Made by a program: the position numbers and the translations under genes. DNA of 63,267 nt from Myxococcales bacterium (GTDB lineage Bacteria; Myxococcota; Myxococcia; Myxococcales; 40CM-4-68-19): assembly GCA_036518615.1 (NCBI GenBank), contig DATDMU010000186.1:1-63267 (forward strand). The letters are read 5' to 3'. This document shows positions 19,078-45,482 of this stretch, in pieces (positions within the stretch are counted from its first letter, which is position 1; the number at the start of each line of letters is the position of its first letter). A model generated the notes under the pieces. The model saw only the letters and a list, made by a program, of their open reading frames with translations, searched no databases and was not told the origin of the DNA.

Positions 19078-21327
19078 CTAGCGGGGCGCGGGAGCTTCGA
19101 GGGCGTAGCTCAGGCTGGCGAAGATCTGCAGGGGCCGGCCCGGAGTGAGGAATTGCTCCACCGGAGCTCCGGGTCGCCTCGGATTGGGCGCGAAGGTGCC
19201 GAAGGTGCTGTAGCGCGCATCGAGAAGGTTGCCGAGCTGGATCGACGCGGCCAGCTGGCCCGCCGAAAGGCGGACGCCGCCGTCGGTCGAGAGCCAGGCA
19301 GCGAGCATGGGAGCGACGTTCTCCTCGTCGCCGCGCAGGCGCTGCGCCCCCACGAAGGTGCCGGCCAGCCAGAGCGAGAGCCAGCTGCTCGGCTGCAGCT
19401 CGATGCCGAGACGCGCGCGATGCCGCGGCACCAGCGGGAACTGGCTGCCTGCGCGGACCGTCTCGGTGCAGGACAGGGCGCCGCAATCGGAGGTCCGCCG
19501 CGCGGTGGCGAGCGACACGTCCTCTTCGAAGCGCGCGTCGGTGAGCGCCCAGGTGAGGCTGCCCTCGATCCACCGGGCAGGCCGGAGGCGGAGGTTCGCT
19601 TCCACGCCTTGCCGACGCGTCCTGCCGATGTTCTGGAAATACACCCCGACGGTCCCCGCCGGCGAGATGGAGAAGATGTCGTCCGCGACGTCGGTCCGGT
19701 ACGCGCTGATCTGCCCGGAGAGCCATGGCGCAGGCGCCGAGCGCAACCCGATCTCGTAGTTGACCGCGCGCACCGGCTTCAGGGGCGGGTCCGGAGCGGT
19801 GCCCGCCTGCAGGCCCGGGCAGATGGCGGCGGCGCCCGCGCAGGTCAGCTCCAGGAGGGCGGGCGCGCGGAACCCCTGCGAGAGGGAGAGGTAGACGCCG
19901 TGCTCGCGCGAAAGGTTGTAGTTCAGGCCGACCAGCGGGTCGAAGCGGCGGAACGCGGGAACACCGCTTGCGTTCTCCCGTCCGGGCGCGCTCGGGCTCT
20001 CGTCGGCGATGCGGTGGCGGATGAAGTCCCAGCGGCCCGCGGCGGTGACCACCCATTCGTCGTCTTCGCGAAGCGTGCCGCGGGCGATCCGGAAGGTGTC
20101 TTGCAGGTAGGCGCCCACCGCATCCTGGAGATCGCGCACCTTCGTGTCCAGATCCTGCGCGCCGAACACGCTCACCTCGACGTCGCTGTGCGCGTATTCG
20201 AGGCCGGCGGTGAGCAGGTTCCGCCGTCCGAAGAACGGCGCGGTGCAGTCGAGCTGGACCGTCCCTCCCGCCGAGGCGGTGCGCGAAAGGAGCCTGGTGT
20301 TCTCCGCGATCAGGTTCACGTTGAATTGCTCGACGTGCAGCAGCCGCCCGAACCCGTTCGCGGAGAGGGCGAAGCGGTCTCCCAGATCCCGCCGGAAGTT
20401 CAGCGTCGCCTGGTCCAGGCGCGGAGCGAAGAAGTCGCCCGCGGTGAAGTTCGCCGCGCGGTCGCGGTCCAGCTCCGAGGCAGGCAGCGGACCCGCCTGC
20501 GAGATCCGGTTGTCCACGTGCTGGTAGGAGAGGGTGACGTCGGTGCCGTCCGCCCGCAGGCCGAGCTTTCCGAACGCCTTGGAGAGCCGCGCTCCCGACG
20601 CTTGCCTCCAGCCGTCCTCCGCCGTCTGCGTCCCGGAGAGGTAGAAGTCGAGCGGGCCCTCCCCCCCGGAGACCGCCCCGCGAATCTTCCGCAGCCCTGA
20701 GCTCCCCGCGGAGAGCTCCGCGGACGCGGCGGCACCCTCCTTGCCGCGACGGGTGACGAGCTGGATGGCCCCTGCGAGCGTGTTCCTTCCGAACAGCACC
20801 GAGGGGCCCGGGACCACCTCGATCCGCTCGAGGTCCTCGACGGGAAGGAGATCGAAGTTGATCTCCTCGGCGGTGGGCTCGTTGACGCGGACTCCGTCGA
20901 GAAACACGCTCACGCCCTGCGGGACGCCGGTGACCGAGGTGGCCTGGAACCCGCGCAGCGAGACGTCCGGCTGGTACGAATTCCCCTGCTCGTCGGAAAG
21001 CGACAGCCCCGGCACCTGGCCGGCGATCACCTCGGGCAGGCCCTGAGGTCCGGGCCGCTTCAGCTCCTTCAGCTCGAACACCTGCGCGGCGGCGGGCACG
21101 CTGGAGGGCGGAAGCGGCAGCCGGGGCAGCCGCCCGATGACGATGATCTCCTCCGACGCCTCCTTCGGCTTCGTTCCCTCCTGCGCCGGATCCTGCGGCG
21201 CGGGCGGATCCGGCTGGGCGGCCGGCGGCCGATCTCCGCCGCCCTGCTCCGCGCGGCCGCCGCGAGGCGCGGCCGCGATCAGCAGGCAGGCGGCGATATG
21301 GCGCAATGCCCGCGCTTGCGGTTTCAT
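19078..21327 (-). CDS. TonB-dependent outer-membrane receptor
   Basis: Signal peptide. Plug motifs EEIIVIG, VPGLSLSDEQGNSYQPDVSLRGF, VFLDGVRVNEP, IEVVPGPSVLFGRNTLAGAI. Then a ~550-aa barrel region. Confidence 0.88.
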   Translation of the reverse strand: MKPQARALRHIAACLLIAAAPRGGRAEQGGGDRPPAAQPDPPAPQDPAQEGTKPKEASEEIIVIGRLPRLPLPPSSVPAAAQVFELKELKRPGPQGLPEVIAGQVPGLSLSDEQGNSYQPDVSLRGFQATSVTGVPQGVSVFLDGVRVNEPTAEEINFDLLPVEDLERIEVVPGPSVLFGRNTLAGAIQLVTRRGKEGAAASAELSAGSSGLRKIRGAVSGGEGPLDFYLSGTQTAEDGWRQASGARLSKAFGKLGLRADGTDVTLSYQHVDNRISQAGPLPASELDRDRAANFTAGDFFAPRLDQATLNFRRDLGDRFALSANGFGRLLHVEQFNVNLIAENTRLLSRTASAGGTVQLDCTAPFFGRRNLLTAGLEYAHSDVEVSVFGAQDLDTKVRDLQDAVGAYLQDTFRIARGTLREDDEWVVTAAGRWDFIRHRIADESPSAPGRENASGVPAFRRFDPLVGLNYNLSREHGVYLSLSQGFRAPALLELTCAGAAAICPGLQAGTAPDPPLKPVRAVNYEIGLRSAPAPWLSGQISAYRTDVADDIFSISPAGTVGVYFQNIGRTRRQGVEANLRLRPARWIEGSLTWALTDARFEEDVSLATARRTSDCGALSCTETVRAGSQFPLVPRHRARLGIELQPSSWLSLWLAGTFVGAQRLRGDEENVAPMLAAWLSTDGGVRLSAGQLAASIQLGNLLDARYSTFGTFAPNPRRPGAPVEQFLTPGRPLQIFASLSYALEAPAPR

Positions 21328-21412
21328 TCATCCAGGCCTCGCCGCGACCTTACCAGAAGGCCGCCTGCGGGCTGAACGCGGACCCCGCCGGGCGCGGATC
21401 CGCAAGGCCGCG

Positions 21413-21814
21413 TCAGTTGGCCGAGCGGGCCGTGGACGGGGGCAGGCAGACGATCTGGCCGCGATCCGGGCTCGGCTCCCAGGCCATTCCCTGCGCCCGG
21501 CACTTGTGCACGCTGGCGACGCCGTCGTTCCAGCGCGACCGCGAGTAGTTCAGCTTTTCGGCCGTGTCGGGAAACGCGAAGGTGTACTGGAAGGCGTTGG
21601 GCGCCCAGCAGCGGCAGAGATCGCCCTTCGCCGAGACTTCCACGTACGTCGCCTCAGTGCACGCCTGCAGGCAGCCGGCCGCGACGTGGGCCTGCGCCAC
21701 CGTTCCTGGCGCGCGCGATTGCTGGACCTCGGCGGCTGGATGCGCGCACCCGATGGCGGCGAGGGCGAGCGACGCAAGCGCCACGCGGACGCGGAACGGA
21801 TTCGACGACGGCAT
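21413..21814 (-). CDS. Small Cys-rich lipoprotein
   Basis: ATG 21814 is preceded by GAGGAGGG. Lipobox LALAAIGC. Six further Cys. Confidence 0.55.
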   Translation of the reverse strand: MPSSNPFRVRVALASLALAAIGCAHPAAEVQQSRAPGTVAQAHVAAGCLQACTEATYVEVSAKGDLCRCWAPNAFQYTFAFPDTAEKLNYSRSRWNDGVASVHKCRAQGMAWEPSPDRGQIVCLPPSTARSAN

Positions 21815-21962
21815 GGATTCCCTCCTCGGCAAGAGGAGAAGATGGGCACGCCGTTCGCGCGCGACACCTCCCCGTGCAGCCCGTGGACGAGCGCCGCCGG
21901 TACGAGCCGCAAGGTACGAGACGTACGCAGGCTCACGCGGCCACCTGCACGGCCGCGGCACA

Positions 21963-23198
21963 TCAATCGCCCGGGCTCATCCGATCGAGATTCTTCGCCT
22001 GCTCGCTTCCGCGCAACCGGGAACGCCCGCGGACGGAGCGCAGGGTCGCGTCGAGGAAGTCGGCCCCCGCCACGTCTGCTCCCTCGAGGTTCGCGCCCGA
22101 CAGATCCGCCCGGGCAAAGTTCACCTTCCTCAGATTCGCGCCGCCGAGATCGGCCCCGGCGAGGCTCGCGCCGCTCAAATCGGTGCGCATCAGCCCCATC
22201 GGCTGGTTGCCCGGGTGCGCCCCGAGGTCCGCGTGGACGAGCTTCGCCCCCTTCAGATTTGCGCCTGTCATCGTCGAGATGATCCGCGCGCGGGTCAGGT
22301 CCGCGTCCACCAGCACGGCTCCGGTGAGGATCGTGGCGTAGAGGCTCGCCTCGTGCAGGTCCGCGCCGGTCAGATCCGCGCGCTCGAGCACCGCGAGATC
22401 GAGCACGGCGCCGGCCAGGACCGCCCCGCTGGCCACTGCATCGGTCAGCTTCGCGCCGAACAGCCGCGCCCGGCTCAGGTTCGCGCCGGCCAGACGGCTG
22501 CCGGAGAGATCCGCACGCCGGAAGTCCGTCCCCTCGAAGTTCAATCCCGACAGGTCGAGGCCCGCCAGATTCGCCGGAGCCTGTTCGCTGGCGGCGCCGA
22601 GCAGCGCGAGAACCTCATCGCGCGTCGGCTTCCGTCGCTCCCGCCCGGGCGCGAGCTGCGGCGCAGGCGAGGCGGTGTCCGCCGCCGCGAGCCGGCGTGC
22701 CATCGAAGACATCGCGTGCGGCAGCAGTTGCGCGATGTCTCCTTTCAGCTCGAGTTGCTCGCGCCGCAGCACGCGGTTGGCGCTGGCGTCGACCAGCGTC
22801 GCATCCAGGAACCAGATGATGCTGCTCACCTTGGTCACGCTTGCGAAAGCGGCGCGCTCCGCGCGCACCATCCTCGCCAGCCGTGTCGCGCACTCCGCTC
22901 CGGCGCAGGAGGCCGCTGGACCTTGCGGGCCGCCGATGCCGCCGTCCGACGCCGGCCCGTCGATCACCGTGTACCCCTGACCTTCGAGCGACGAGGCGAG
23001 CCATCCTCGCGGCGTCTTCCCGCCGGCGGAGAGCGATTTCCGAACCGCCTCGACGTCGGAGATGGGGCTGACGTCCGCGATCGCGACGTCGAGAAGGACC
23101 ACCGGCCCGCGCGAACCGGCCAGGCAGGGCAGCGCGATCAGGAGCGCGCACGCCGCCCCTCGCGCCGGCGGCAGATCCAGACGCCCCTCGGACCTCAT
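21963..23198 (-). CDS. Pentapeptide-repeat protein with N-terminal signal peptide and non-repeat domain
   Basis: C-terminal ~200 aa of A(D/N)LSG-type pentapeptides (LAGLDLSGLNFEGTDFRRADLSGSRLAGANLSRARLFGAKL...ADLGGANLRKVNFARADLSGANLEGADVAGADF). The N-terminal ~170 aa is a separate globular domain behind a signal sequence. Confidence 0.8.
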   Translation of the reverse strand: MRSEGRLDLPPARGAACALLIALPCLAGSRGPVVLLDVAIADVSPISDVEAVRKSLSAGGKTPRGWLASSLEGQGYTVIDGPASDGGIGGPQGPAASCAGAECATRLARMVRAERAAFASVTKVSSIIWFLDATLVDASANRVLRREQLELKGDIAQLLPHAMSSMARRLAAADTASPAPQLAPGRERRKPTRDEVLALLGAASEQAPANLAGLDLSGLNFEGTDFRRADLSGSRLAGANLSRARLFGAKLTDAVASGAVLAGAVLDLAVLERADLTGADLHEASLYATILTGAVLVDADLTRARIISTMTGANLKGAKLVHADLGAHPGNQPMGLMRTDLSGASLAGADLGGANLRKVNFARADLSGANLEGADVAGADFLDATLRSVRGRSRLRGSEQAKNLDRMSPGD

Positions 23199-23595
23199 CC
23201 GGAGGGCCTACCACGGCGCCCTCGCGCGCGCGAGGCGTGCACCGCGGCATCCCGGCGGGGAGCGGGTTGGCCCATCTTTCAATCGCGAGAGATGCACCGC
23301 CAGAGGCGAGCTTTTCCGAGGGAGCCGTAGCGGGTGCGTCATGCCTTTTTATACTTTCACTGGATATGCGCACGCCGCGCGGTGCGACCGATTGACACGC
23401 GCGGTCTTGACCCGGGGATCCCTTCCGCGCCTAAACCGATTCCCATCGACGGGCGGTTCCCAGTCGGTCGTCATCCCGGTAGCACTGCAATCTTCGACAC
23501 GGCCGCTGCGCGTACGACTTCGAGCTACCCGGGGCCGCCCCTCCGGATTCGGGGAAGCAGTCGCAGCGAACGAACAAGCGAACACGGAGATGACA

Positions 23596-25389
23596 ATGAA
23601 ATTCATGCGCGGTTGGCGAGCGTGCGCGTCCCTCGTCGCTCTCGTCGTTGGCCTCGCCTCTGGCTCGGCTGCCGATTCGAAGGGCGAGTGGACCATGACC
23701 GGTCGCACCTACGATCTGCAGCGGTTCAGCCCGCTCGACCAGCTCAAGCCGGCGAACGTCGGCAGGCTGGTGCCCACCTGGACCTTCTCCACCGGAGCGC
23801 TCCGCGGGCACGAGGGGAATCCGCTGGTGATCGGCAACGTGATGTATCTCCATTCGGCATTCCCCAACACGGTGTATGCCCTCGACCTCGCCCGCCCGGG
23901 CGCGCCGATGCTGTGGAGGCACGTCCCGGCGCAGCCGGCGGACACCATCCCGATCGCGTGCTGCGACGTGGTGAACCGCGGCCTCGCCTATCACCCGAGC
24001 GGCAAGCTCTTCATCGAGCTGCTCGCCGGCGATCTGCTCGCCCTCGACGCCAAGACCGGCAAGCAGCTCTGGCGGGTGAAGAACGCCGACTACAAGGAAG
24101 GCTCCACCATGACCAACGCGCCCATCGTGATCAAGGACACGGTGATCGCGGGGATCTCCGGCGGCGAGTTCGGCGTCCGCGGCCGGGTGACGGCGTACGA
24201 CGTCAACAGCGGCCAGGAGAAGTGGCGCGCCTACAGCACCGGCCCCGACGCGGAGGTCAAGATCGGGTCGGACTTCATCGCCAACTACCCGTCGCACAAG
24301 GGCGCCGACCTGGGCGTCAGCACCTGGCAGGGCGACCAGTGGAAGCGCGGCGGCGGGACGACCTGGGGCTGGTACTCCTACGATCCCGAGCTGAACCTCT
24401 TCTATTACGGCACCGGCAATCCCGGCACCTGGAACCCCGACCAGCGCCCCGGCGACAACAAGTGGTCGATGACCATCTTCGCCCGCAATCCGGACACGGG
24501 GATGGCGCGCTGGGCCTATCAGATGACGCCGCACGACGAATGGGACTACGACGGCGTCAACGAGATGATCCTCGCCGACCTCAACGTCAACGGAAAGAAG
24601 ACCAAGGCGCTGGTGCACTTCGACCGCAACGGGTTCGGCTACACCCTCGACCGCGCCACCGGGAAGGTGCTGGTGGCGGAGCATTTCGGTCCCGGCGTGA
24701 ACTGGGCATCCAAGGTCGATTTGAATACCGGCGTTCCCGTGCGCAATCCGAAGTACGGCACGACGTCGAAGGAGAACACCACCGGCATCTGCCCGGCGGC
24801 CATCGGCTACAAGGACCAGCAGCCGGCTGCGTTCTCGCCGAAGACCGGGTTCTTCTACGTTCCGGCGAACAACATCTGCATGGACTACGAAGGAGTCGAG
24901 GTCAAGTACGCTGCCGGCCAGCCCTACGTCGGCGCCATCGTCCGCATGTTCCCGGGTCCGGGCGGCAACCGCGGCCGGTTCTTCGCCTGGGACGCCACCA
25001 AGGGCAAGGTGGTGTGGGAGATCAAGGAGGACCTCGCCGCGTACGGCGGCGCCCTCGCCACCGCGGGCGGACTGGTCTTCTACGGCACCATGGAAGGATG
25101 GCTGAAGGCAGTCGACGCCAAGACCGGCAAGGAGCTGTGGAGGTTCAAGACTCCCTCCGGGATCATCGGCAATCCGATGACCTACCTGGGCCCGAACGGC
25201 AAGCAGTACGTCGCGGTCCTCTCCGGCATCGGCGGCTGGGCCGGCATCGGCGTCGCCGCGGGCATCAGCAACGAGGACCCCACCGCGGGTCTCGGCGCGC
25301 TGGGAGCGTTCGGCGACGCGGACAAGTTCAGCACGCAGGGCGGAGTGCTGACGGTGTTCGGCCTGCCGGAGGGACTCGCCTCCCGCTGA
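23596..25389 (+). CDS. xoxF: PQQ-dependent methanol/ethanol dehydrogenase, lanthanide (XoxF) type
   Basis: Signal peptide MKFMRGWRACASLVALVVGLASGSA. Vicinal Cys pair IACCDVVNRG. Propeller motifs throughout. TPHDEWDYDGVNE carries the extra Asp (DYDG) that distinguishes XoxF from Ca-MxaF (DYAG). No MxaI-like small subunit is adjacent. GGAG at 23586-23589 favours ATG 23596 over ATG 23590. Confidence 0.9.
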   Translation: MKFMRGWRACASLVALVVGLASGSAADSKGEWTMTGRTYDLQRFSPLDQLKPANVGRLVPTWTFSTGALRGHEGNPLVIGNVMYLHSAFPNTVYALDLARPGAPMLWRHVPAQPADTIPIACCDVVNRGLAYHPSGKLFIELLAGDLLALDAKTGKQLWRVKNADYKEGSTMTNAPIVIKDTVIAGISGGEFGVRGRVTAYDVNSGQEKWRAYSTGPDAEVKIGSDFIANYPSHKGADLGVSTWQGDQWKRGGGTTWGWYSYDPELNLFYYGTGNPGTWNPDQRPGDNKWSMTIFARNPDTGMARWAYQMTPHDEWDYDGVNEMILADLNVNGKKTKALVHFDRNGFGYTLDRATGKVLVAEHFGPGVNWASKVDLNTGVPVRNPKYGTTSKENTTGICPAAIGYKDQQPAAFSPKTGFFYVPANNICMDYEGVEVKYAAGQPYVGAIVRMFPGPGGNRGRFFAWDATKGKVVWEIKEDLAAYGGALATAGGLVFYGTMEGWLKAVDAKTGKELWRFKTPSGIIGNPMTYLGPNGKQYVAVLSGIGGWAGIGVAAGISNEDPTAGLGALGAFGDADKFSTQGGVLTVFGLPEGLASR

Positions 25390-25494: not shown

Positions 25495-26724
25495 ATTCGC
25501 CGATCCCTGTCCCGCTTCTGCCTCGTCTCGCTGGTCCTCGCCGGTGCGGCGCTCCTCGTTTCCACTCCGGTCGCGGGGGAGGACGCGAAGCCGCTGCGCG
25601 TCTGCGCCGATCCCGACAATCTTCCCTTCTCCGATCGACAGGAGCAGGGGTTCGAGAACCGCATCGCGGCCCTGCTCGCCAGGGAGATGGGCGTTCCGCT
25701 GAGCTACTTCTGGTGGCCGCACCGCCGCGGCTTCCTGCGGCAGACCCTGCGCGCCGGCGAGTGCGACGTGCTGATGGGAGTGCCCGAGGGGATGGACGCG
25801 TTCCTCGCCACCAGGCCCTACTACCGCTCGGCGTACCAGTTCGTCACCCGCGTCGATCGCGATCTGGATCTCACCTCCTTCGACGATCCCCGCCTGCGCC
25901 AGCTGAAGATCGGCGTCAACATGATCGGCTACGAGTACACGAACTCGCCCGCCGCGCGCGCGCTCGGCGCCCGCGGAATCGTCGGCCTGGTCGGGTTCCC
26001 CACCTTCTACAACGAGGAGAACAGGCCGGGGGACATCATCGAGGCGGTGGCGGAGGGCAAGATCGACGTGGCCATCGTCTGGGGCCCCGTCGCCGGTTAT
26101 TACGCGAAGCAGCAGGAGGTTCCGCTGGCGCTCGCGCCGGTGCCCGCTTTCGACGGGCAGAGCGGGACGCCGTTCGCCTTCTCCTTCGTCGTCGGCACGA
26201 GGAAGTCGGAGAAGGCGCTGGCGGAGCGGATCGAGAAGGCGCTCGAGGGAAAGCAGGAAGAGGTGCGAAAGATCCTGCAGGAGTACGGCGTGCCGCTCGC
26301 GGCCGCGCCTTCTGCCGCGCCGCCCGCGGGCAAGCGCGCCGACGGAACGGGAGCCCCCGCCGCGACGGCCGCGACAGCCGTGTCGACCATGACCCACGCC
26401 GGGCAGAACGGCGACAACCTGCTGGCGACGCCGGACGAGTATCAGGGCTGGAAGTGGTTCCACGTCTATTGCTTTCGCTGCCATGGCATCGATGCGATGG
26501 GATCCGACCTGGCGCCCAATCTGAGGAAGTCGGTATCGTCCGAGGGGCTGGTCACCCACGACGTCTTCCTCAAGACGGTGCGCGACGGCCGGCAGGAGAA
26601 AGGAATGCAATCCTGGAAGGCGCTGCTCGACGATCCGCAGATCGAGCAGCTCTACGCCTACATCAAGGCGCGCAGCGAGGGCCGTCTCGCCGCGGGCAGG
26701 CCTCACCGGGCGACCAGCAAATGA
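25495..26724 (+). CDS. xoxJ: MxaJ/XoxJ-family periplasmic binding protein fused to a C-terminal monoheme cytochrome c
   Basis: The track ORF starts at ATG 25687, but the same frame is open from the xoxF stop. It encodes (I)RRSLSRFCLVSLVLAGAALLVSTPVAG-EDAKPLRVCADPDNLPFSDRQEQGFENRIAALLAREMGV, a signal peptide plus the conserved MxaJ N-terminus. GGAGGGAG (25482-25489) lies 5 nt before ATT 25495. The C-terminal ~100 aa has CFRCH and the Met-ligand region GMQSW after an Ala/Pro linker. The protein call is confident; the start codon is not. Confidence 0.8.
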   Translation: MRRSLSRFCLVSLVLAGAALLVSTPVAGEDAKPLRVCADPDNLPFSDRQEQGFENRIAALLAREMGVPLSYFWWPHRRGFLRQTLRAGECDVLMGVPEGMDAFLATRPYYRSAYQFVTRVDRDLDLTSFDDPRLRQLKIGVNMIGYEYTNSPAARALGARGIVGLVGFPTFYNEENRPGDIIEAVAEGKIDVAIVWGPVAGYYAKQQEVPLALAPVPAFDGQSGTPFAFSFVVGTRKSEKALAERIEKALEGKQEEVRKILQEYGVPLAAAPSAAPPAGKRADGTGAPAATAATAVSTMTHAGQNGDNLLATPDEYQGWKWFHVYCFRCHGIDAMGSDLAPNLRKSVSSEGLVTHDVFLKTVRDGRQEKGMQSWKALLDDPQIEQLYAYIKARSEGRLAAGRPHRATSK

Positions 26725-26760: not shown

Positions 26761-27612
26761 TCAGTCCTTGACGTAGCGCCAGCCGAAGCGCCCCTTGATG
26801 CAGAGGTTGCCGCGCGTCACCGGATGCTCGAACGGCGAGGTCACCTTGACGATCTCGCCGTCCTGCACGTGCAGGCGCAGCGTGCAGCCGACGCCGCAGT
26901 ACCCGCAGATGGTATCGACCTGCGCTTGCCGCGCCTCGTTCCAGGTGCCCGCCTGCCGGTGGTCGTGCTCGCTCTTGAAGACGAGCGCGCCGGTCGGACA
27001 GACGGCGATGCAGTTGCCGCAATAGACGCACGCGGAACGGGGCAGCGGCACGCCCAGCTCGGTCGAGATGCGGGCATCGAAGCCGCGCCCGGCCACGGAG
27101 ATGGCGAAGGTGTTCTGGAAGTCGTCGCCGCACGCCTCCACGCACTTGTAGCAGAGGATGCACTTCGAGTAGTCGCGCACGTAGAGGTCGTTGTCCAGCT
27201 TGACCGGCTGCGCGACGGTGGCGGCGGATCCGTACCGATCGGGGCGGCATCCATACTCGGCCATCCACCCTTCGACGTTCGCCGTGGTGGAGAGGTCGAC
27301 GGAAGAGGCGAGGAGCTCGAGCACCATCTTGCGGCTGTGCCGGACCCGCTCGGATCCGGTGCGCACGATCATCCCGGGCTCGGCCCTGCGCGAGCAGGCG
27401 GGAACGAGCGCGCGCGACCCCTCCAGCTCGACCACGCAGAGGCGGCACACGTTCACCGGCTCGAGCGTCTCCAGATGGCAGAGCGTGGGAATCGCCTTCC
27501 CCTGCCGGCGGCAGGCCTGCAGCAGGGTCGTTCCCTCCTCGACGCGAACGGCCTCGCCGTCGATCTCCAGCTCGACCATCCGCGCTCCGGCGGTCTGCAG
27601 CGGGCCGCTCAT
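26761..27612 (-). CDS. Formate dehydrogenase Fe-S module: 2Fe-2S, two ferredoxin-type 4Fe-4S, and the MopB-type FS0 4Fe-4S domain, without a molybdopterin domain
   Basis: ATG 27612 overlaps the upstream stop (ATGA). LCHLETLEPVNVCRLCVVEL..PAC is the 2Fe-2S site. CILCYKCVEAC and CVYCGNCIAVCP are the ferredoxin-type sites. The C-terminal CGYCGVGCTLRL...LCIKGRFGWRYVKD-stop is CxxCxxxC..C, as at the N-terminus of FdhF-type enzymes. Confidence 0.85.
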   Translation of the reverse strand: MSGPLQTAGARMVELEIDGEAVRVEEGTTLLQACRRQGKAIPTLCHLETLEPVNVCRLCVVELEGSRALVPACSRRAEPGMIVRTGSERVRHSRKMVLELLASSVDLSTTANVEGWMAEYGCRPDRYGSAATVAQPVKLDNDLYVRDYSKCILCYKCVEACGDDFQNTFAISVAGRGFDARISTELGVPLPRSACVYCGNCIAVCPTGALVFKSEHDHRQAGTWNEARQAQVDTICGYCGVGCTLRLHVQDGEIVKVTSPFEHPVTRGNLCIKGRFGWRYVKD

Positions 27613-29429
27613 GCGCCCTCGCCTCCGGCGAAGATGCGCAGCCGCGTCGCAGCCGACTCGACGGCGCCGTACGCCGTCTGCCCGAGGCCGCAGATCGAGG
27701 CGTCCTTCATCGCCCGGCCGATCTCGTCGAGCAGCAGGAGCTCCGCGCCTGCGCCGCCGCGAGGCTGGCCCGCGGCGAGTCTCCGCAAGGCCTCCTCCTG
27801 CCGCACGGTGCCCACGCGGCAAGGAACGCATTGCCCGCAGGACTCTTCGCGGAAGAAGGCGGCGATGCGCAGCAGGACGGGGATCAGGTCGATGGAATCG
27901 TCGAACACCATCACCGCGCCCGAGCCCAGCGTGACCCGCGCCGCCCGCGCCCCCTCGAAGGTGAGCGGGATGTCCACCTCGTCGCCGCGCACGAACGCGC
28001 CGGCCGCGCCGCCGAGCAGGATCGCCTGCGCCTTGCGCCCTGCCCGGACGCCGCCGGCGAGGTCGATCAGATCGCGCAGCGTCGCCCCGAACCGCACCTC
28101 GTACACGCCCGGCCGCTCGACGCATCCGCACACGGAGAAGAGCTTCGGGCCGGTGGACTGCGCGGTCCCGATGCCCGCGTACGCCTGCCCGCCCTCGAGC
28201 AGGACGCCGAGGACGTTCACCAGGGTCTCCACGTTGTTGACGACGGTGGGCCTGCCGAACAGCCCGGCCTCCACCGGAAAGGGCGGCTTGTTGCGGGGCT
28301 CTCCCCGGTACCCCTCGATCGAGTTGAAGATCGCCGTCTCCTCGCCGCAGATGTAGGCGCCGGCGCCCCTGCGGATCTCGACGTCGAAGCGGACCCCTTT
28401 GCCCATCACGTCGTTGCCGAGCAGCCCGCGGGCGCGCGCCGCGTCGATGGCGGACTGCAGCCGCTCGGCAGCGAGCGGGTACTCCCCGCGCAGGTAGACG
28501 AAGCCCTCTTCGCATCCCGTGGCGCAGGCGCAGATGGTCATCGACTCCAGAACCGCGAACGGATCGCCCTCCAGCAGCACGCGATCCTTGAACGTGCCGG
28601 GCTCCGACTCGTCCGCGTTGCAGACCAGGTAGTGCGGCCGCGCCGGTTGTCGCGCGACCGCGTCCCATTTGCGTCCCATGGGGAAGGCCGCGCCGCCGCG
28701 CCCCATGATCTTCGACTCGAGCACTTCGCGGATGACGGCTTCCGGCCCGATGGCGAAGGCGCGCTCCAGCGCGCGGTAGCCGCCGTGGGCCAGGTAATCG
28801 TCGAGGCTTTCCGGATCGACGGAGCCAACCCGCCGGAGCAGGCGCAGCGACGGATCTCCTGCCTGCGGCAGCCGGCGGCGACGCATGTCGGGCAGCCGGC
28901 CATCCGGGGCAAGCGCCGCCAGGGCTTCCTCCGCGGTCACCGGCCCGAAGAGACGCTGCGCGGGCGAGCGGCCGGCAACGGTCAGGAACGCCGCGGGCGC
29001 CTGATCGCAGAGTCCGAGGCACGGGCTGCGCCGCCAGGGCGCGCCGTCGCCGTCGCCGAGGGTCCGTTCCAGGGCCGCGATCACCTCGGCCGCGCCGCTG
29101 CAGCGGCAGGCGATGTCCTCGCAGACGTGGAGCACGCGCGCAGGGCGCGGCTCCGTCGAGAGCAGCCCGTAGAAGGTGGCCACCCCCCAGGCATCGGCCG
29201 GTGGCACGACCAGCCGCCTGCACACGTAGCCGAGCGCGCCCTCGCTGATCCAGCCGGCGCGCGCCTGCGCCGCCTGCAGCGCGGGAAGCAGCAGGTGGCG
29301 GCGGCTGCGCCGGATGCCCGCCGCGAAGTGGCCGTCCGCCTCCTGCCCTTCCGGCGCGGCGCCGAGAAGCGCGTCGATCGCGTCGCGCTCGTCGGCGGTC
29401 GGTTCCGCTTCCATCTGGCGCAGGTCCAC
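27609..29429 (-). CDS. NuoE-NuoF fusion (FdsG/FdsB-like NAD(P)-linked diaphorase subunit)
   Basis: The N-terminal NuoE-like 2Fe-2S part has VCEDIACRCSG..CLGLCDQAP. The NuoF part has GRGGAAFPMGRKW, YLVCNADESEPGTFKDR, GAGAYICGEETA, ESCGQCVPCR. GTG 29429 immediately follows the fdhA TAG, with GGAGGA just upstream. Confidence 0.9.
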   Translation of the reverse strand: MDLRQMEAEPTADERDAIDALLGAAPEGQEADGHFAAGIRRSRRHLLLPALQAAQARAGWISEGALGYVCRRLVVPPADAWGVATFYGLLSTEPRPARVLHVCEDIACRCSGAAEVIAALERTLGDGDGAPWRRSPCLGLCDQAPAAFLTVAGRSPAQRLFGPVTAEEALAALAPDGRLPDMRRRRLPQAGDPSLRLLRRVGSVDPESLDDYLAHGGYRALERAFAIGPEAVIREVLESKIMGRGGAAFPMGRKWDAVARQPARPHYLVCNADESEPGTFKDRVLLEGDPFAVLESMTICACATGCEEGFVYLRGEYPLAAERLQSAIDAARARGLLGNDVMGKGVRFDVEIRRGAGAYICGEETAIFNSIEGYRGEPRNKPPFPVEAGLFGRPTVVNNVETLVNVLGVLLEGGQAYAGIGTAQSTGPKLFSVCGCVERPGVYEVRFGATLRDLIDLAGGVRAGRKAQAILLGGAAGAFVRGDEVDIPLTFEGARAARVTLGSGAVMVFDDSIDLIPVLLRIAAFFREESCGQCVPCRVGTVRQEEALRRLAAGQPRGGAGAELLLLDEIGRAMKDASICGLGQTAYGAVESAATRLRIFAGGEGA

Positions 29430-31325
29430 CTATCCTCCCGCCGGCTCGACGCGGACGGCGCACGCCTTGAACTCCGCCGTGCCCGACCTCGGGTCGGCCA
29501 CGTCGATGGTGAGGGCATTGACCGCGACGTCGTCCTGGAAATGCGGCGTCATGAAGACGAGGCCGGCGCGAACGGAGGCGTCGATGCGCACCGGCGCGAC
29601 CACGCTGCCGCGGCGCGAGGAGACCCGCGCCATGGCGCCCTCGCTGAGACCGAGACGGCGCGCGTCCTCTGCCGAGATGTCCAGCGTCTCGCCGCGCCTG
29701 AGCGGCGAGGGCATCGAGCCCGACTGCACGCCGGTGTTGTACGAGTCCAGCCTCCTGCCGGTGGTGAGCACCAGCGGATAGGCTTCGTCCGGCGTCTCCA
29801 CCGGCGGCCTGTGCTGCACGGCGAAGAACGGCGCGGGAGGGCCCCGCCGCGGGTCTTCCCAGAGGCGGCCGTGGAGGAAGAGCTCCCCCGGATGCTGCTC
29901 GTCGTAGCACGGCCATTGCAGCCCCCGGTGCTCCTCGAGGCGGCGATAGCTCATCCCGGCGAAGATGGGCGCCAGGGAACGGACCTCGTTCCACACCTGC
30001 TCGGCGGCCGGATTGCCCCAGTCATGGCCCAGTCGAGCCGCGATCTGCGCGAGGATCCAGAGCTCGTCGCGCGCCTCGCCGGGAGGATCGAGCGCCTTGC
30101 GCACGCGCTGCACGCGCCGCTCGCTGCTGGTCACCGTCCCTTCCCCCTCGCACCAGGTCGCGGCGGCGGGGAGGACCACGTCGGCCAGCTGCGCCGTGGG
30201 CGTGAGGAAGATGTCCTGCACCACCAGGAAATCGAGGCCTTCGAGCAGGGCCTGCGCCCGATGCTGATTGGCCTCCGACTGGCAGGGGTTCTCGCCGATC
30301 ACCAGGAGCGCCCGGAGGTCCCCCCGCTCCATCGCCTCGAACATCTGGGTGACGTTCCAGCCGTGCCCGGGCTGCAGGCGGACGCCCCAGGCGGCTTCGA
30401 ACTTCGCCCTGACCGCCGGGTCCAGCACGTCCTGGAAACCGGGCAGGCGATTGGGAATCGCGCCCATGTCGCCGCCGCCCTGGACGTTGTTCTGGCCGCG
30501 GAGCGGATTGAGTCCGGAGCCATGGCGCCCGACGTGGCCGGTCAAGAGAGCGAGGTCGATGAGTGCGAGGACGTTGTCCACCGAGGTGTGGTGCTCGGTG
30601 ATTCCCAGCGTCCAGCAGATCATCGCCTTTCCTGCCCGGGCATACGCGTGCGCGGCCTCGCGGATCGCGCTGGCGGGCACGCCGGTCACCGCTTCGGCGT
30701 ATTCCAGCGTGTACGGTTCGACGCACGCGCGGTACGCAGCGTAGCCCGCCGTCGCCCGCTCGATGAACCCGGCGTTCGCCAGCCCCGCGTGGATGATCTC
30801 GCGCCCCATCGCATTGGCGAGCGCGATGTCGGTGCCCACCTCCAGCCCGAGCCAGAGGTCCGCCCAGCGCGCCGACGCGGTCCGCCGCGGATCGACCGCA
30901 AAGAGCCGCGCTCCGGCGTTCACGCCCTTGAGCACGTGCTGGAAGAAGATCGGGTGCGTCTCGCGGGCATTGGAGCCCCAGAGGAAGATGACCTCGGCCT
31001 CTTCGATCTCGCGGTAGGAGCTCGTCCCTCCCCCCGCTCCGAACACCGTCGCCAGACCGACGACGCTGGGCGCATGTCAGGTCCGGTTGCAGCTGTCGAT
31101 GTTGTGCGTGCCGAACGCGACGCGGGCCAGCTTCTGCGCGAGGAAGTTGACCTCGTTGGTGGCCCGCGAGCAGCTGAAGATGCCCAGGGCGTCGGGCCCC
31201 GCCTGGTCGCGCGTCCGGCGAAATCCCGAGGCGACCCGATCGAGCGCCGCGTCCCAGGTCGCGGGGACGAGCGCATCGCCCTGGCGCACGAGAGGTCGCA
31301 GCAACCGGCGATAGCGTGTCTGCAT
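29430..31325 (-). CDS. fdhA: Formate dehydrogenase catalytic subunit (Mo/W-bis-PGD domains), selenocysteine-containing, lacking the N-terminal FS0 cluster domain
   Basis: Track ORFs 31077..31325 and 29430..31046 share one frame and are joined by TGA 31077-31079: [34 protein letters not shown]. This aligns with E. coli FdhF NNVDCCARV-U-HGPSVAG. Downstream MopB features: FLWGSNARETHP, NPLRGQNNVQGGGDMG, LVLTTGRRLDSYNTG, GLVFMTPHF. Confidence 0.85.
31047..31065 (-). promoter_or_regulatory. SECIS-like mRNA hairpin 11 nt downstream of the in-frame UGA
   Basis: On the mRNA: UGA-CAUGCGCCCAG-CGUCGUC-GGUCU-GGCGACG. This is a 7-bp stem (one G-U pair) with apical loop GGUCU, the GGUC-type loop I recall from the E. 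coli fdhF SECIS. Confidence 0.55.
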
Positions 31326-31392
31326 GGGCGGCCGTGGGGAAGGAGCAAGTCTAGGCAGCGTCGAGACGCCGGGTCAATGAGCTCTGCAAAGT

Positions 31393-35910: not shown

Positions 35911-36573
35911 CTACTTCCAGCTCAGCTTCAAGGTGGGGACGGCGAGGGCCACCGCGCGGAGCAACTGCACCGGCCAGGTGCCAAACTGGTCACGCGCCTT
36001 GGTCTCCGTCTTGAATGCCTTGAACGGCGTGCGGTAGATCGCCAGGTGCGAGCGCGGATTGGCGATGGGAAACTGCTTCCGGCCAACCGTCTTCACCACC
36101 GGGACCGCAAAGAAATCGGGGACGAGCACGACGGTGTTCTGTGAGAAGAATTGGTCCTTCAACGCCACCTTCTCTTCCGGCACTTTGCCGTATTCGACGA
36201 CCCGATAGACCTTGAAGTGATCGAGATTCCGGGGCGGCTCGCTGCCGTGCTCCAGCTTCTGCGCCGGGCACAGCAGCGCCTCCACTTTTCCAATGGCGAG
36301 GGTCGCGTCGCCGAACTGGTTCCGGATCTTCACCGATCGGGTGGTCTCGATGGTCTTCTGGAACAGACGATACCAGGTCAGGTGCGCGCCGGGGTCGAAG
36401 AGCGGCTCCTTGTTCTTCATGGTGCAGACGCCGAACAGATCGAGAGCCTGCAGCTGCCCTTTGCTCGCGATGCGATCGAATTGTCCTTTGGTCTGGACGA
36501 CGGCTTCCGCAGCCACGTTGGCAATGTCGTAGATACGGAAGTAGTCCAGCCTCAGCTCGCGAGCGGTGGTCAT
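35911..36573 (-). CDS. Orphan protein built from four ~50-aa repeats (two-fold duplicated pair), unknown family
   Basis: ATG 36573 has GGGGGAGG 6 nt upstream. Repeats: LDYFRIYDI..KGQFD..LFGVCTMK / HLTWYRL..VKIRNQFGDATLAI..LLCPAQK / LDHFKVYRV..LKDQFF..FFAVPVVK / HLAIYRT..KARDQFGTWPVQL..LAVPTLK. The local sequence is visibly less GC-rich than the flanks. No signal peptide. Confidence 0.6.
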   Translation of the reverse strand: MTTARELRLDYFRIYDIANVAAEAVVQTKGQFDRIASKGQLQALDLFGVCTMKNKEPLFDPGAHLTWYRLFQKTIETTRSVKIRNQFGDATLAIGKVEALLCPAQKLEHGSEPPRNLDHFKVYRVVEYGKVPEEKVALKDQFFSQNTVVLVPDFFAVPVVKTVGRKQFPIANPRSHLAIYRTPFKAFKTETKARDQFGTWPVQLLRAVALAVPTLKLSWK

Positions 36574-36637
36574 TGGCGCCTCCCCCGAATCAGGGCCAAA
36601 GATAGACTGTCATGCCGCCCGAAGACCTGCAAGATGG

Positions 36638-36671
36638 CCGAGGGAATCCTCGCGGTTATGCGAGCCCTCGG
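36638..36671 (-). terminator. Imperfect hairpin downstream of iorB (terminator candidate)
   Basis: Plus-strand CCGAGGG-AATC-CTCGC-GGTTAT-GCGAG-CCCTCGG gives 12 bp of pairing. It lies 40 nt after the iorB stop and before the orphan gene. Confidence 0.35.
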
Positions 36672-36710
36672 AGATCATTCCTTTAATATGCAGTCGCGGC
36701 GCGGTGGAGC

Positions 36711-38950
36711 TCAGACGATGCCGGCGCGCGCGAAGGGAATGCTGCGAATCCGCTGCCCGGTCAGCGCGAAGATGGCGTTCGCGATCGCCGGCGCCACCGG
36801 CGGGACTCCCGGCTCGCCGATGCCGCCCGGAGGCCCGTCGCTCTCGACGATCTCCACGTGCGTGCGCCGCGGCGCCTGCCCGATGCGGACGAGCTTGTAG
36901 GAATCGAAGTTCCCCTGCTCGGTGACGCCGTTCTTCATCGTCGCGCCGCCGTAGAAGGCGTGGCTCATGCCGAAGATCACCGCGCCTTCCATCTGCGAGC
37001 GCGCCCGCTCCGTATCGACCACGGTCCCGGCGTCCGCCGCGAGCCAGACTTCGTCCACGGCGATCTTTCCCCGCGCGTCCTTCACCACCGAGACGACCAC
37101 GGCCACGTAGGTGAGGAAGCTGCGGTGCGCCGCGAGCCCGAGCGCGCGCCCCTTGCGCTCGCTCCAGTTCGCCATGCGCGTGACCCGCTCGATGACGTTG
37201 CGGTAGCGCCCGGCGTCCACGGGGTGCTTCTCCAGCGGCGCGCCGTAGTTGCGCAGCTTCTCCACCCCCAGCTCCTCCAGGCTGACGATCCGCGCCGGGC
37301 CGAAGATCTCCAGCAGGTTCTCGCGCGGATCGACGCCGCGCGCGTGCGCCAGCTCGTCCATGAACGATCCCGCCGAGAAGCCGTGGAAGATGTTGTAGAC
37401 CGAGCGCAGCCAGCCGATGCGCACGTGCGCCGCGGCATCGCACGTCTCCGCACGCACGTTGGGGATGAAGAGCGGCAGGTCGGTGACGCCCTGCTGCAGA
37501 TCGTCCGGCCCGGGGCCCTTCACGTTCGGCGCCATGGTGTTGGCGATGGGCGGAAACGCGGTGCGCTGCCGCCAGGCGATGACCTTGTTCTGCGCGTCGA
37601 GACCGGCGGTGAGGAGCTGCGTGTTGACCGCGTTGTAGTAATCATGGCGCAGGTCGTCCTCGCGGGTGAACTGCACCCGCACCGGCGCGCGCGCCTCGCG
37701 CGAGAGGAAGGCCGCCTCGCCCACGAAGTCCGCCTTGGACTTGCGCCCGAACGCGCCGCCGAGCAGCGTCACGTGGCAGGTCACCTTCGACTCGTCGAGC
37801 CCGAGGACCTTCGCCGCCTCGGTGCGGGCCGCCTGCGGGTTCTGCGTGGACGCCCACACCTCGCAGGCGCCGTCGGCGTAGCTGGCGATGCAGGCGGGCG
37901 GCTCCATCGAGACGTGCGCGAGATGGGGCACGTGGTACTCCGCCTCCACCTTGCGCGCGGCATGCGCGAGCGCCTGCTCCACGTCGCCGACGTTGCGCGC
38001 GGGCTTGCCGGCAGCGTGAACGGCGCGGCTCAGCTCCTGCGCGTAGCTTTCCGAGTCGTAGACGGCGTTGTCGCCGGGGTCCCACTCGATCCGGAGAGCG
38101 TTGCGGCCCCGGATGGCGGCCCAGGTGTTGGTGGCGAGCACGGCCACGCCGCCCCAGGGCTGGAAGCGGTACGGCTTCGACGGCTCCGGCATGCGCACCA
38201 CCTTCTTCACGCCGGGGATGGCAAGCGCCGCCCTGTCGTCGACGCTGCGGATTTTCCCGCCGACCACCGGCGGACGGGCGATCACAGCGACCAGCATGCC
38301 GTCCATGCGCACGTCCGCGCCGAAGCGCGCCTTGCCGGTGACGATGTCCTTGCCGTCCACCAGCGGCAGATCGCGGTAGACGTGCTTCATCTCCGAGCGC
38401 GGCCGCGGCTTCGCCGAATCGGGCACCGGCAGCTTCGCCGCCGCCTCGGCGAGCTCTCCGAACGGGAGCGACTTCCTGCCGTTCCAGACCGCGTGGTCGT
38501 GCGCCTGCAGCCTGGCCGCGGGCACGCGCCACTTCTTCGCCGCCGCGGCGATCAGCATGGTGCGCGCCGTCGCGCCCGCCTTGCGCAGGTCGTCGTAGGC
38601 GTTGCGGATGCTGCTCGATCCGTCGGTGTTCTGGTCGCCGTACTTCTTGTCTCCCACCGCCTGCTCGATGGCGACGCGCGAAGGGTCCGCCCCCATCTCG
38701 TCGGCGATCAGCGCGGGGATGGTGCTGCGCACGCCCTGGCCCATCTCCGAGCGGGCGCAGACGATGGTGAGCGCGCCGTCGCTGGCAAGGTGCACGAAGA
38801 CGTTGGGGCGGAAGCCTTCCGAGGCATTCTTGAGGGCGGCATCGCCGGGCTTCGGCTTGCGCGTGCTCTTGCCGCTGGGCTCGTCCGCGAAGATGCGGCC
38901 GCCGATGACCGAGAGCGCGAGGCCGCCCACGAACGTGCGCCGGGAGAGGG

Positions 38951-38954
<4 letters not shown>
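36711..38954 (-). CDS. iorB: Molybdopterin-dependent hydroxylase large subunit (IorB / aldehyde oxidase-xanthine dehydrogenase family), Tat-exported
   Basis: ATG 38954 gives Tat signal [19 protein letters not shown]. Family motifs [34 protein letters not shown]. Substrate unknown. Confidence 0.9.
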
Positions 38955-39417
<463 letters not shown>

Positions 39418-39421
<4 letters not shown>

Positions 39422-40044
39422 GGACGCGCTCCTTCCGGCGGGCACTCCGCGCCGGTGTCCACCCAGGCCTGCATCAGATCTCCGAGCTGCTCCTGCGTCC
39501 CCGGCGCCGGCTCGCGGCCGTGGCCCGGCTGCCATCCCCAGCTCACCAGATCGTCGAGCCGGTTGTGGTCGACCACGTCCTGGAGGCTGCGGTTGCCGTT
39601 GCGGGACTTGTCCTTCATCTGCTCGCAGATGGCGTGCGGCGACTTGCCCACCCACGCCATCTTGCGCGGCGCGAGCTGCCAGTGCGGCGCGCCGGGAATC
39701 CGCGCCAGCTCGAGGTTCTTGTCCTGGTGGCAGCCGGTGCAGCGCATGCCGGGGATTCCGGTGTCGAGGGGGCCGCGGACGACCGGCGGATCGTGGACGT
39801 GCATGTCGGCGCCCGAGCGAGGCGTGTCGCCGTCGGGATGGCAATTCGCGCAGCGCGGGTGCAGGAAGACGCGGCTCGCCTCGAGGAAGAGGGCGCGGGA
39901 CCGCTCCGCGCGATCGCCGATCTGCGCGAACGCCGCGGGCGCCCTCAGCGCGCCGGAAGCGGGCGGGGCCGCCGCTGGTTGCGCGGTCGCCGCGGGCTTC
40001 TGCGACGCGCAGGCTGCAAGGAGGACGAAGACGAGCTTGCGCAC
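39418..40044 (-). CDS. Diheme c-type lipoprotein, third subunit of the IorAB-type operon
   Basis: Lipobox VLLAAC. Two CXXCH motifs (CANCH, CTGCH). The stop overlaps the iorA GTG (GTGA). Confidence 0.75.
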
Positions 40045-43468: not shown

Positions 43469-43668
43469 GACGTCCTCCTGGCGGGGTGATTCAGGATGTG
43501 CACGGCGGCTCGATCTCTGCAAACGGGGCTCCTCGAACAGCCGCTTTGGCACGACATACCTTCGTCGGATGCCATTTGCCGCGCGGCACGGTGTCGCTTT
43601 GCGCCGCTCGTTCGGCAGCGACCATAGTCGTTCCGCTCGTTCCTTCCACCATAAAGAGCGAGAAGCAA

Positions 43669-45456: not shown

Positions 45457-45482
45457 CGGAGAGAACGTCGTCGAAGTGCGGG

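Follow-up and report, generated by a model that had tools for sequence, protein, structure and literature searches.

In single-chain formate dehydrogenases the FS0 domain, which binds a [4Fe-4S] cluster, continues straight into the pterin-binding part of the catalytic alpha chain. Can the two be made as separate polypeptides and still form one enzyme? The question is raised by three abutting genes on the minus strand, between positions 31325 and 26761, of contig DATDMU010000186.1 from a Myxococcales bacterium (assembly GCA_036518615.1; the whole stretch of 63,267 nucleotides (nt) that was analysed is referred to as the window). We estimate at roughly 0.8 the probability that these genes, in the order cat-EF-NG, encode one cytoplasmic NAD(P)+-linked formate dehydrogenase (FDH) of the FdsABG/Fdh1AB kind, which would carry molybdenum or tungsten (Mo/W) and selenocysteine (Sec) and whose alpha subunit would consist of two polypeptides. 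The enzyme would be of a known kind, in a subunit architecture that is ancient, widespread, conserved and apparently undescribed.

Two halves of an alpha chain

The first gene, cat (29430..31325, minus strand, with its TAG stop at 29432-29430), is translated into a 631-amino-acid (aa) catalytic subunit, predicted to hold Mo/W in a bis(pyranopterin guanine dinucleotide) (bisPGD) centre. It is followed on the same strand by EF (27609..29429), encoding a 606-aa NuoE-NuoF fusion as the putative diaphorase subunit (2Fe-2S, site for flavin mononucleotide (FMN) and NAD(H), 4Fe-4S), and by NG (26761..27612), encoding a 283-aa iron-sulfur (Fe-S) subunit composed of an N-terminal module of the NuoG/FdsA type and the FS0 domain. 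The GTG start codon of EF stands immediately 3' of the cat stop codon (GGAGGA-TAG-GTG, 29432-29427) and the ATG of NG overlaps the TGA of EF (ATGA, 27612-27609) in the sequence GCATGAGC, with GGAGGA and GGAGG, respectively, ahead of the two starts. A first-pass annotation had placed the three genes at these positions and described both junctions as tight, and the translations, the domain searches and a direct reading of the junction DNA agree with it. This layout stands; what the first-pass annotation missed are the Sec codon and Sec insertion sequence (SECIS) hairpin in cat, and the loss of the PF10588 domain from NG.

The position of the cut could be determined by comparison with continuous chains. 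The Fdh-alpha model TIGR01591 (672 positions) is shared between two proteins, with positions 1-49 matching residues 234-282 of NG and positions 51-672 matching residues 5-626 of Cat (669.5 bits against a cut-off of 666.25). The same partition is obtained with FdsA from Rhodobacter capsulatus (6TG9_A), as residues 12-281 of NG align with FdsA 24-303 (E 1e-43) and residues 3-630 of Cat with FdsA 304-935 (E 1e-123). Residues 61-688 of Escherichia coli FdhH (1AA6_A) align with Cat 7-629, and the FS0 domain of FdhH (1-60) has no counterpart in Cat. Furthermore, an unsplit relative of 911 aa (P0128, from an Armatimonadetes metagenome-assembled genome, MAG) aligns continuously with both NG and Cat; compared with this continuous chain, NG ends with CIKGRFGWRYVKD and a stop codon, and Cat begins with MQTRYRRLLRPLVRQG. 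By these alignments, the cut between NG and Cat is seamless. The earlier proposal of a split exactly at the boundary between FS0 and domain I, at a point where single-chain enzymes run from FS0 straight into a Cat-like segment, is borne out by FdsA (303|304) and by P0128, without gap or overlap, and the gene order confirms that the N-terminal half is encoded last, after the NuoE-NuoF fusion.

The domain content of the two proteins agrees with this partition. Pfam searches of Cat returned Molybdopterin (PF00384, residues 7-430, E 8e-67) and Molydop_binding (PF01568, 518-623, E 3.5e-26), but not Molybdop_Fe4S4 (PF04879), and no other candidate for a proximal cluster was found in the protein; together with the TIGR01591 match, which begins at model position 51, this substantiates the claim that Cat is devoid of FS0. 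NG contains, also as claimed, a 2Fe-2S domain (Fer2_4), two ferredoxin-type 4Fe-4S motifs (CxxCxxCxxxCP) and, at its extreme C-terminus, the FS0 domain (Molybdop_Fe4S4, residues 232-282, E=7e-20; coding segment 26767..26919, minus strand), one residue past which the stop codon is found. E-values of the individual domain matches in the three proteins range from 1e-20 to 1e-200 and the arrangement recurs at every related locus examined, so that chance need not be considered. The FS0 ligands are arranged as C236-x2-C239-x3-C243 ... C271-I-K273-G. These four cysteines and the KGRFG of CIKGRFG are invariant in 14 homologues, although the protein has no Mo domain, and all 13 aligned homologues end 2-41 residues past FS0. 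Length differences among homologues correspond to short tails and an internal insertion of about 25 aa. This insertion, rich in Pro and His (GPPAPP...GHH...), lies between the 2Fe-2S and ferredoxin domains (alignment columns ~140-165) in L003, L006 and other Gemmatimonadota and Gaiellales loci, and is absent from the window and from the Myxococcota and Streptomyces versions.

The FS0-like domain of NG could also be read as a structural cluster of a NuoG/HoxU-type diaphorase, similar to N7 and not the point where electrons leave Cat for NG, in which case Cat would be FS0-less like TorA/DorA or would have another partner. NuoG does keep the off-pathway cluster N7 at the FS0 position and superfamily members without FS0 exist (PMC5123574), and NG weakly matches NuoG and HoxU models. 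However, the C-terminus of NG and the N-terminus of Cat are contiguous in FdsA and P0128, the FDH-type pattern CxxCxxxC...C-x-K-G is invariant, Cat offers no alternative proximal cluster and the two genes are never apart in 78 related loci, and we therefore consider an N7-like role unlikely.

With regard to the substrate, the active-site signature of Cat comprises SCNRT-U83-H84-APSV and the Arg of NPLRGQNNVQG, and a conserved His and Arg are named for the FDH active site in PMC7171172. The top Protein Data Bank (PDB) matches of Cat are all FDHs, including FdhF of hydrogen-dependent CO2 reductase (HDCR; 1e-154), FdhH (2.5e-140) and FdsA (1e-123). Formate is the predicted substrate because of this signature and these structural relatives, the pass over the TIGR01591 cut-off and the linkage to fdhD in related loci. 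It can be objected that this cut-off is passed by only about 3 bits and that NasC and NasA models also match (419 and 370 bits), as might be expected if Cat were a MopB oxidoreductase of another kind, for instance one like assimilatory nitrate reductases, with coupling to NAD(P)H. Nevertheless, both Nas matches are far under their cut-offs of 1100 and 1000 bits, as are those of other MopB models in NCBIfam, the U/C-H pair with the RGQNNVQG Arg is an FDH signature, the best structural matches are FDHs without exception and fdhD adjoins the operon in half of the loci. A substrate other than formate is thus highly unlikely.

The product of EF was found by Pfam to contain PF01257 (2Fe-2S_thioredx, NuoE-like, residues 42-149), PF01512 (Complex1_51K, 237-406), SLBB and PF10589 (NADH_4Fe-4S, 518-595), in agreement with its description as a NuoE-NuoF fusion, with the NuoF-like region at 237-595; the NCBIfam model nuoF_fam matches residues 199-598, under its cut-off. 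The PDB matches of EF include FDH beta subunits (6VW7_B, 6TG9_B, 7E5Z_B), and the best ones also take in bifurcating enzymes (9BOV_B, 8OH5_B, 8A6T_B). These matches, the use of the same NuoE/NuoF/NuoG-like blocks and the frequent reversibility of Sec-type FDHs would be compatible with bifurcation or confurcation of electrons (ferredoxin plus NAD), as in enzymes of the HydABC/HylABC-FdhF2 kind, or with a CO2 reductase. However, the four domains above are the only ones that Pfam found in EF, and the additional N- and C-terminal Fe-S domains of bifurcating beta subunits, as described in PMC7311640, are lacking from its NuoF part. Such extras are present in the nearest unsplit relatives (L088-L090) and were lost in the split family along with PF10588; moreover, the hosts are mostly aerobic soil lineages. 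Bifurcation or CO2 reduction is therefore very unlikely, and given a NuoF part with the FMN/NAD(H) and N3-cluster domains and without the extra Fe-S domains, the activity that we predict as most likely is that of a simple formate:NAD(P)+ oxidoreductase.

In the enzyme that we propose, formate would be oxidised at the Mo/W-bisPGD centre of Cat, with Sec83 as the ligand, beside His84 and the Arg of RGQNNVQG. Electrons would then cross between the subunits onto the C-terminal FS0 [4Fe-4S] cluster of NG, go on via both of its ferredoxin-type [4Fe-4S] clusters and its [2Fe-2S] cluster to the [4Fe-4S] cluster and FMN in the NuoF part of EF, and finally reach NAD(P)+; the NuoE-type 2Fe-2S cluster would be a side cluster, as in FdsG. 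Boyington and co-workers reportedly proposed in 1997 that Lys44 of FdhH mediates electron transfer from the pterin to FS0, and the equivalent residue here is, by alignment, on a different polypeptide from the metal.

PF10588 and the motif H-x3-C-x2-C-x5-C were found by Pfam and alignment neither in NG nor in any listed homologue, and unsplit relatives retain PF10588. In place of the motif stands LASSVDLST, invariant in the split family (window 27240-27330, minus strand; residues ~95-125 of NG). Cluster A4, bound by the H-x3-C-x2-C-x5-C motif in R. capsulatus FdsA, is located at the dimer interface, outside the electron pathway (PMC7171172). Since A4 is off the pathway there, the main path from FS0 through the two [4Fe-4S] clusters and the [2Fe-2S] cluster to the NuoF cluster and FMN should be intact without it, while the FdsA-type dimer contact may be lost in the split enzyme.

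The selenocysteine codon of cat

The cat gene is not one uninterrupted open reading frame (ORF). Mechanical ORF calling splits it into 82 aa and 538 aa at an in-frame TGA, the codon of residue 83 (31077..31079, minus strand), which lies in the motif SCNRT-TGA-HAPSVVG, and several public gene callers likewise break it at the TGA into 82 aa and about 530 aa. Taken alone, a gene cut into two ORFs could belong to a decaying pseudogene cluster, in which the TGA would be a nonsense mutation and the split alpha chain a remnant. Against this, the TGA occupies the same column in 67 of 81 related loci and is swapped in the other 14 for a Cys codon (TGC or TGT), with no other replacement. The loci with a Cys codon belong to cultured actinomycetes (Streptomyces, Amycolatopsis, Thermopolyspora and Sphaerisporangium). 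The frame is open and conserved on both sides of the TGA, with 63-78% identity among related loci, and NCBI calls a 646-aa gene that spans the TGA in GCA_035495075.1.

Furthermore, the 45 nt past the TGA fold into a SECIS-like hairpin (31036..31073, minus strand, directly 3' of the TGA), with a lower stem of 31073-31069 paired with 31040-31036, an upper stem of 31065-31059 paired with 31053-31047, and the loop GGUCU (31058-31054). Across 63 Sec sequences, pairing in the upper helix (columns 15-21 with 27-33) amounts to 96%, with compensatory CG to GC changes at pair 18/30, as well as U-A/U-G and U-G/C-G/U-A exchanges at other pairs; in a control in which the 3' partner was slid by one or two columns, pairing fell to 27-37%. 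The loop is invariant in all 63 Sec sequences, and in Cys-type genes the corresponding Gly-Leu codons vary (GGA/GGC/GGG and CTG/TTG/CTC). Counted from the T of the TGA, GGTCTG is at +22..+27, a register identical to that of E. coli fdhF. The window gave no Rfam match at gathering thresholds, and whether Rfam holds a bacterial SECIS model was not checked.

Because of the TGA/Cys column, the conserved flanking frame, the hairpin and the frozen loop in the fdhF register, we conclude that codon 83 is the codon of the active-site selenocysteine, predicted to be decoded as such. A nonsense mutation in a decaying gene, which would have to coexist with a conserved frame and a hairpin with frozen synonymous sites, is hardly credible.

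Spread, origin and setting of the operon

As the contig is metagenome-derived and has a G+C content of 70%, the possibility exists a priori that an assembly or rearrangement artefact divided a normal fdsA-like gene and put the two parts on either side of nuoEF. A pattern scan with one genome per GTDB species found a relative in at least 596 genomes. The best 80 of these loci were examined, and come from Gemmatimonadota, Acidobacteriota, Actinomycetota, Chloroflexota, Eremiobacterota, Dormibacterota and Verrucomicrobiota; 78 had enough DNA for the gene order to be read. In all 78, cat, EF and NG are found in this order on one strand, and cat and NG are never apart (about eight phyla). The start of NG shares 4 nt with the end of EF in 57 of 70 loci, and the distance from the cat stop to the EF start is between -1 and +6 nt in 47 of 70. 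Among the loci are isolate genomes of Streptomyces (S. bicolor, S. calvus), Amycolatopsis kentuckyensis and Thermopolyspora, and complete long-read MAG chromosomes. An identical order in independent assemblies from different projects, isolates and complete chromosomes included, together with the conserved start/stop overlaps and with an NG that ends shortly after FS0 in every aligned homologue, leaves practically no room for an artefact. The search of related genomes for the same three-gene order, which had been suggested at the outset, thus supports the earlier view of a genuine operon rather than a misassembly. At 42 of 86 loci the operon is followed by an adjacent fdhD, the gene for a sulfurtransferase/chaperone of FDHs, which may be on either strand.

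The 120 best NG homologues, out of 8000 scored in a collection of 5.8 billion proteins, are all 274-354 aa long, and the closest named relatives among the listed matches are from Anaeromyxobacteraceae and 'Deltaproteobacteria' MAGs (77-80% identity), which by itself would make a Myxococcota bacterium the probable host of the window. The split architecture is common and is annotated generically only. RefSeq names NG homologues '2Fe-2S iron-sulfur cluster-binding protein', including a Streptomyces 90% cluster of 2212 members, and the JGI name is 'YjgC'; in NCBIfam release 20.0 no model is passed by EF or NG, the best ones (HoxU, FeFe_hydrog_A6 and nuoF_fam) all being under their cut-offs.

Some of the related loci have peculiarities of their own. 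An Anaerolineaceae MAG carries a 1.1-kb insertion between cat and EF (L040, 1250-2349), with an opposite-strand pair of genes for 130 aa and 110 aa that resembles a PIN-toxin/antitoxin module. One contig labelled 'Candidatus Micrarchaeaceae archaeon' (L073) has a bacterial-type operon, at 65-70% identity, and is probably mis-binned. In five long-read MAG contigs (L006, L026, L034, L037 and L057), cat and EF are spread over several frames, most likely through homopolymer indel errors and not as real pseudogenes.

How could such an operon arise? The post-Sec part of Cat served as query for an exhaustive HMMER search of 1.84 billion cluster representatives, which above about 50% identity returned fragments of the split family alone. 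Next, at 46% identity or less, came single-chain FdhA proteins of about 900 aa, in which the match begins near residue 360-370 and the N-terminal Fe-S module and FS0 are present in cis, followed by FdhF-type chains of about 680-720 aa and by 1365-aa fusions. One such fusion, P0130, is a single chain with a 2Fe-2S domain, a glutamate-synthase-like flavoprotein region and a full FdhA. Outside the split family, the catalytic part has its nearest relatives (about 46% identity) in the unsplit FdhA proteins of ~900 aa (P0128, P0271, P0274 and P0277, from Armatimonadota, Poribacteria, Planctomycetota and others), of which P0128 also aligns with NG at 41%. They differ from the split family in being single chains, in keeping PF10588, in having an adjoining NuoF-like partner with extra ferredoxin or GltD-like domains and, in the examples read, in a Cys ligand. 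Their gene order differs as well, and in the neighbourhoods of three of them (L088-L090) it is nuoE, nuoF with extra domains, and fdhA. In two of these (L089, 2696-5773; L090, 2590-5724) the NuoF-like partner is fused to GltD-like Fer4_20/Pyr_redox_2 domains (1025-1044 aa). The operon fdsGBACD has the corresponding order, fdsG-fdsB-fdsA (PMC7171172).

Rotating EF - NG.FS0.cat cyclically gives the arrangement cat - EF - NG.FS0. If a nuoE-nuoF-fdhA operon were duplicated in tandem and its first EF-NG.FS0 and last cat were then lost, both the split and the rotation would arise in one step, in an operon-level analogue of permutation by duplication. We infer this duplication-loss origin from topology alone; tblastn found no flanking NG or cat remnants of a duplicated operon at any locus examined. 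Since FdhF-type structures outscore FdsA as matches of the catalytic half, an exchange of modules is an alternative origin still to be reckoned with.

As for the immediate setting, a promoter-like site, TTGACC-18-TAGACT (31348..31377, minus strand), is located 23 nt upstream of the cat ATG in a divergent intergenic region of 68 nt, which is weak evidence, with one site found against 0.2 expected. Within the cat-EF-NG operon no promoter-like or terminator-like site was found. Two plus-strand genes converge on the 3' end of the operon, one for a pyrroloquinoline quinone (PQQ)-dependent dehydrogenase with a WDYDG motif (23593-25389), which we take to be of the XoxF type, and one for a 345-aa protein with a C-terminal cytochrome c domain (25687-26724). 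In the closest long loci (L001/L002, 1241-3823), the operon lies beside genes for a class III zinc alcohol dehydrogenase (369 aa), a glutathione S-transferase (202 aa) and an esterase-D-like protein (278 aa), which, named from their Pfam domains, look like a glutathione-dependent formaldehyde oxidation set. This local context suggests a role in oxidising formate from one-carbon (C1) or other metabolism in the lineage of the window. A conserved C1 neighbourhood was rejected as a feature of the family, as xoxF adjoins the operon in the window and L025 only, among the related loci compared, and the formaldehyde genes do so in L001/L002 only.

Further away in the window, a TonB-dependent receptor and a DUF3280/pentapeptide-repeat protein are encoded just upstream of the PQQ dehydrogenase (19081-23195, minus strand); a link to lanthanide or cofactor uptake is a guess. 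A second, unrelated molybdoenzyme is represented by a 920-aa MoCoBD protein of the aldehyde oxidase/xanthine dehydrogenase family, beside a DUF7450 repeat protein (35911-39473, minus strand). Finally, genes for a multicopper oxidase, a 785-aa multihaem cytochrome with an MtrC/MtrF-like domain and 11 paired-CXXCH matches, and an NHL-repeat protein succeed one another at 43471-47771 (plus strand).

Weight of the evidence and known systems

Several points speak against one NAD-linked Sec formate dehydrogenase with a divided alpha chain. No fdhD, selA/B/D or tRNA-Sec is present within the 63-kb window, which contains no tRNA at all, and no sel gene was found among the scanned neighbours; Sec decoding in this organism would therefore rest on cis signals only. 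A single-chain AlphaFold model of NG, made with a 14-sequence alignment, reached a mean predicted local distance difference test (pLDDT) score of 55.8, with values below 50 over the ferredoxin and FS0 parts, which is too low for a fold search. The catalytic part finds better matches in FdhF-type chains than in FdsA, so that the two halves may differ in ancestry, and the C1 gene neighbourhood is not conserved among relatives. Lastly, that Cat, EF and NG assemble, that electrons take the proposed path to NAD+ and that catalysis runs towards formate oxidation is inferred from sequence.

In the superfamily, deviations from the archetype consist only of FS0 loss or added Fe-S extensions, according to PMC5123574. 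We found no literature description of an FDH with FS0 on a separate chain, most subscription-journal papers being outside the coverage, and put the chance that the split architecture is truly undescribed at even or somewhat better. The wider claim, that these operons represent an undescribed, ancient and widespread class of NAD-linked Mo/W FDHs (in Acidobacteriota, Gemmatimonadota, Actinomycetota including Streptomyces, Chloroflexota, Eremiobacterota, Dormibacterota, Verrucomicrobiota and Myxococcota), made by cyclic operon rotation and the first in the superfamily with FS0 and pterin on different polypeptides, has in our judgement an even chance of being correct.

If this is true, there would be no physical coupling between insertion of the molybdenum cofactor (Moco) into the catalytic subunit and assembly of FS0 before the subunits dock. 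In nitrate reductase, Moco can be inserted only once FS0 is in place (PMC5123574), and an FS0 in trans would be a direct means to separate these steps. The position of the cut shows where an alpha chain tolerates a break, which is useful for the modular engineering of CO2-reducing or formate-oxidising catalysts. The split family appears to be a main FDH of dominant soil phyla, and its Cys variant occurs in genetically tractable Streptomyces, so that the family should be easy to test. As gene callers cut cat at the Sec codon and NG carries generic names, the operon is easily mis-scored in metabolic reconstructions. The fields chiefly concerned are the biogenesis, structure and engineering of molybdoenzymes and the annotation of soil genomes.

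Among known systems, FdsABG(D) from R. capsulatus and Cupriavidus necator (6TG9, 6VW7) has the same NuoE-, NuoF- and NuoG-like Fe-S, FS0 and Mo-bisPGD modules and shares the active-site His and Arg. FdsA, however, is one chain of 958 aa, cut in the window at 303|304; the order here is cat-EF-NG and not G-B-A, NuoE and NuoF are fused, and Sec replaces Cys. The A4 cluster of FdsA (His117/Cys121/124/130, PF10588) is missing from the window, no FdsD was seen, and identity is moderate.

Both chains of the tungsten enzyme FDH1 of Methylobacterium extorquens (Fdh1AB; 7VW6, 7E5Z, 8J83) match the window proteins. FDH1 is a two-module NAD-linked FDH from a methylotrophy setting, and its beta chain (572 aa in the PDB) was reportedly described as a NuoE-NuoF fusion by Laukel and colleagues in 2003. 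Its alpha chain (989 aa in the PDB) holds the N-terminal Fe-S module, FS0 and the catalytic domains, with a Cys ligand. E. coli FdhH (FdhF, 1AA6) is strongly alike in its catalytic domains, with Sec followed by His, and GGUCUG is found at +22..+27 after the UGA in both genes; it differs in having FS0 (1-60) in cis and no NuoG-like module, and in delivering electrons to hydrogenase 3 instead of NAD+.

Divided enzymes built from the same modules do exist. In HylABC-FdhF2 and HDCR, modules of this construction kit are on separate polypeptides, with a separate NuoG/HydA-like Fe-S subunit, and in the formylmethanofuran dehydrogenase FwdB/FwdD a MopB catalytic chain is naturally split, with domain IV on its own subunit. 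To our knowledge, FS0 is covalently attached to the Mo/W-binding chain in all of these, unlike in the window, where the cut falls between FS0 and the pterin-binding domains.

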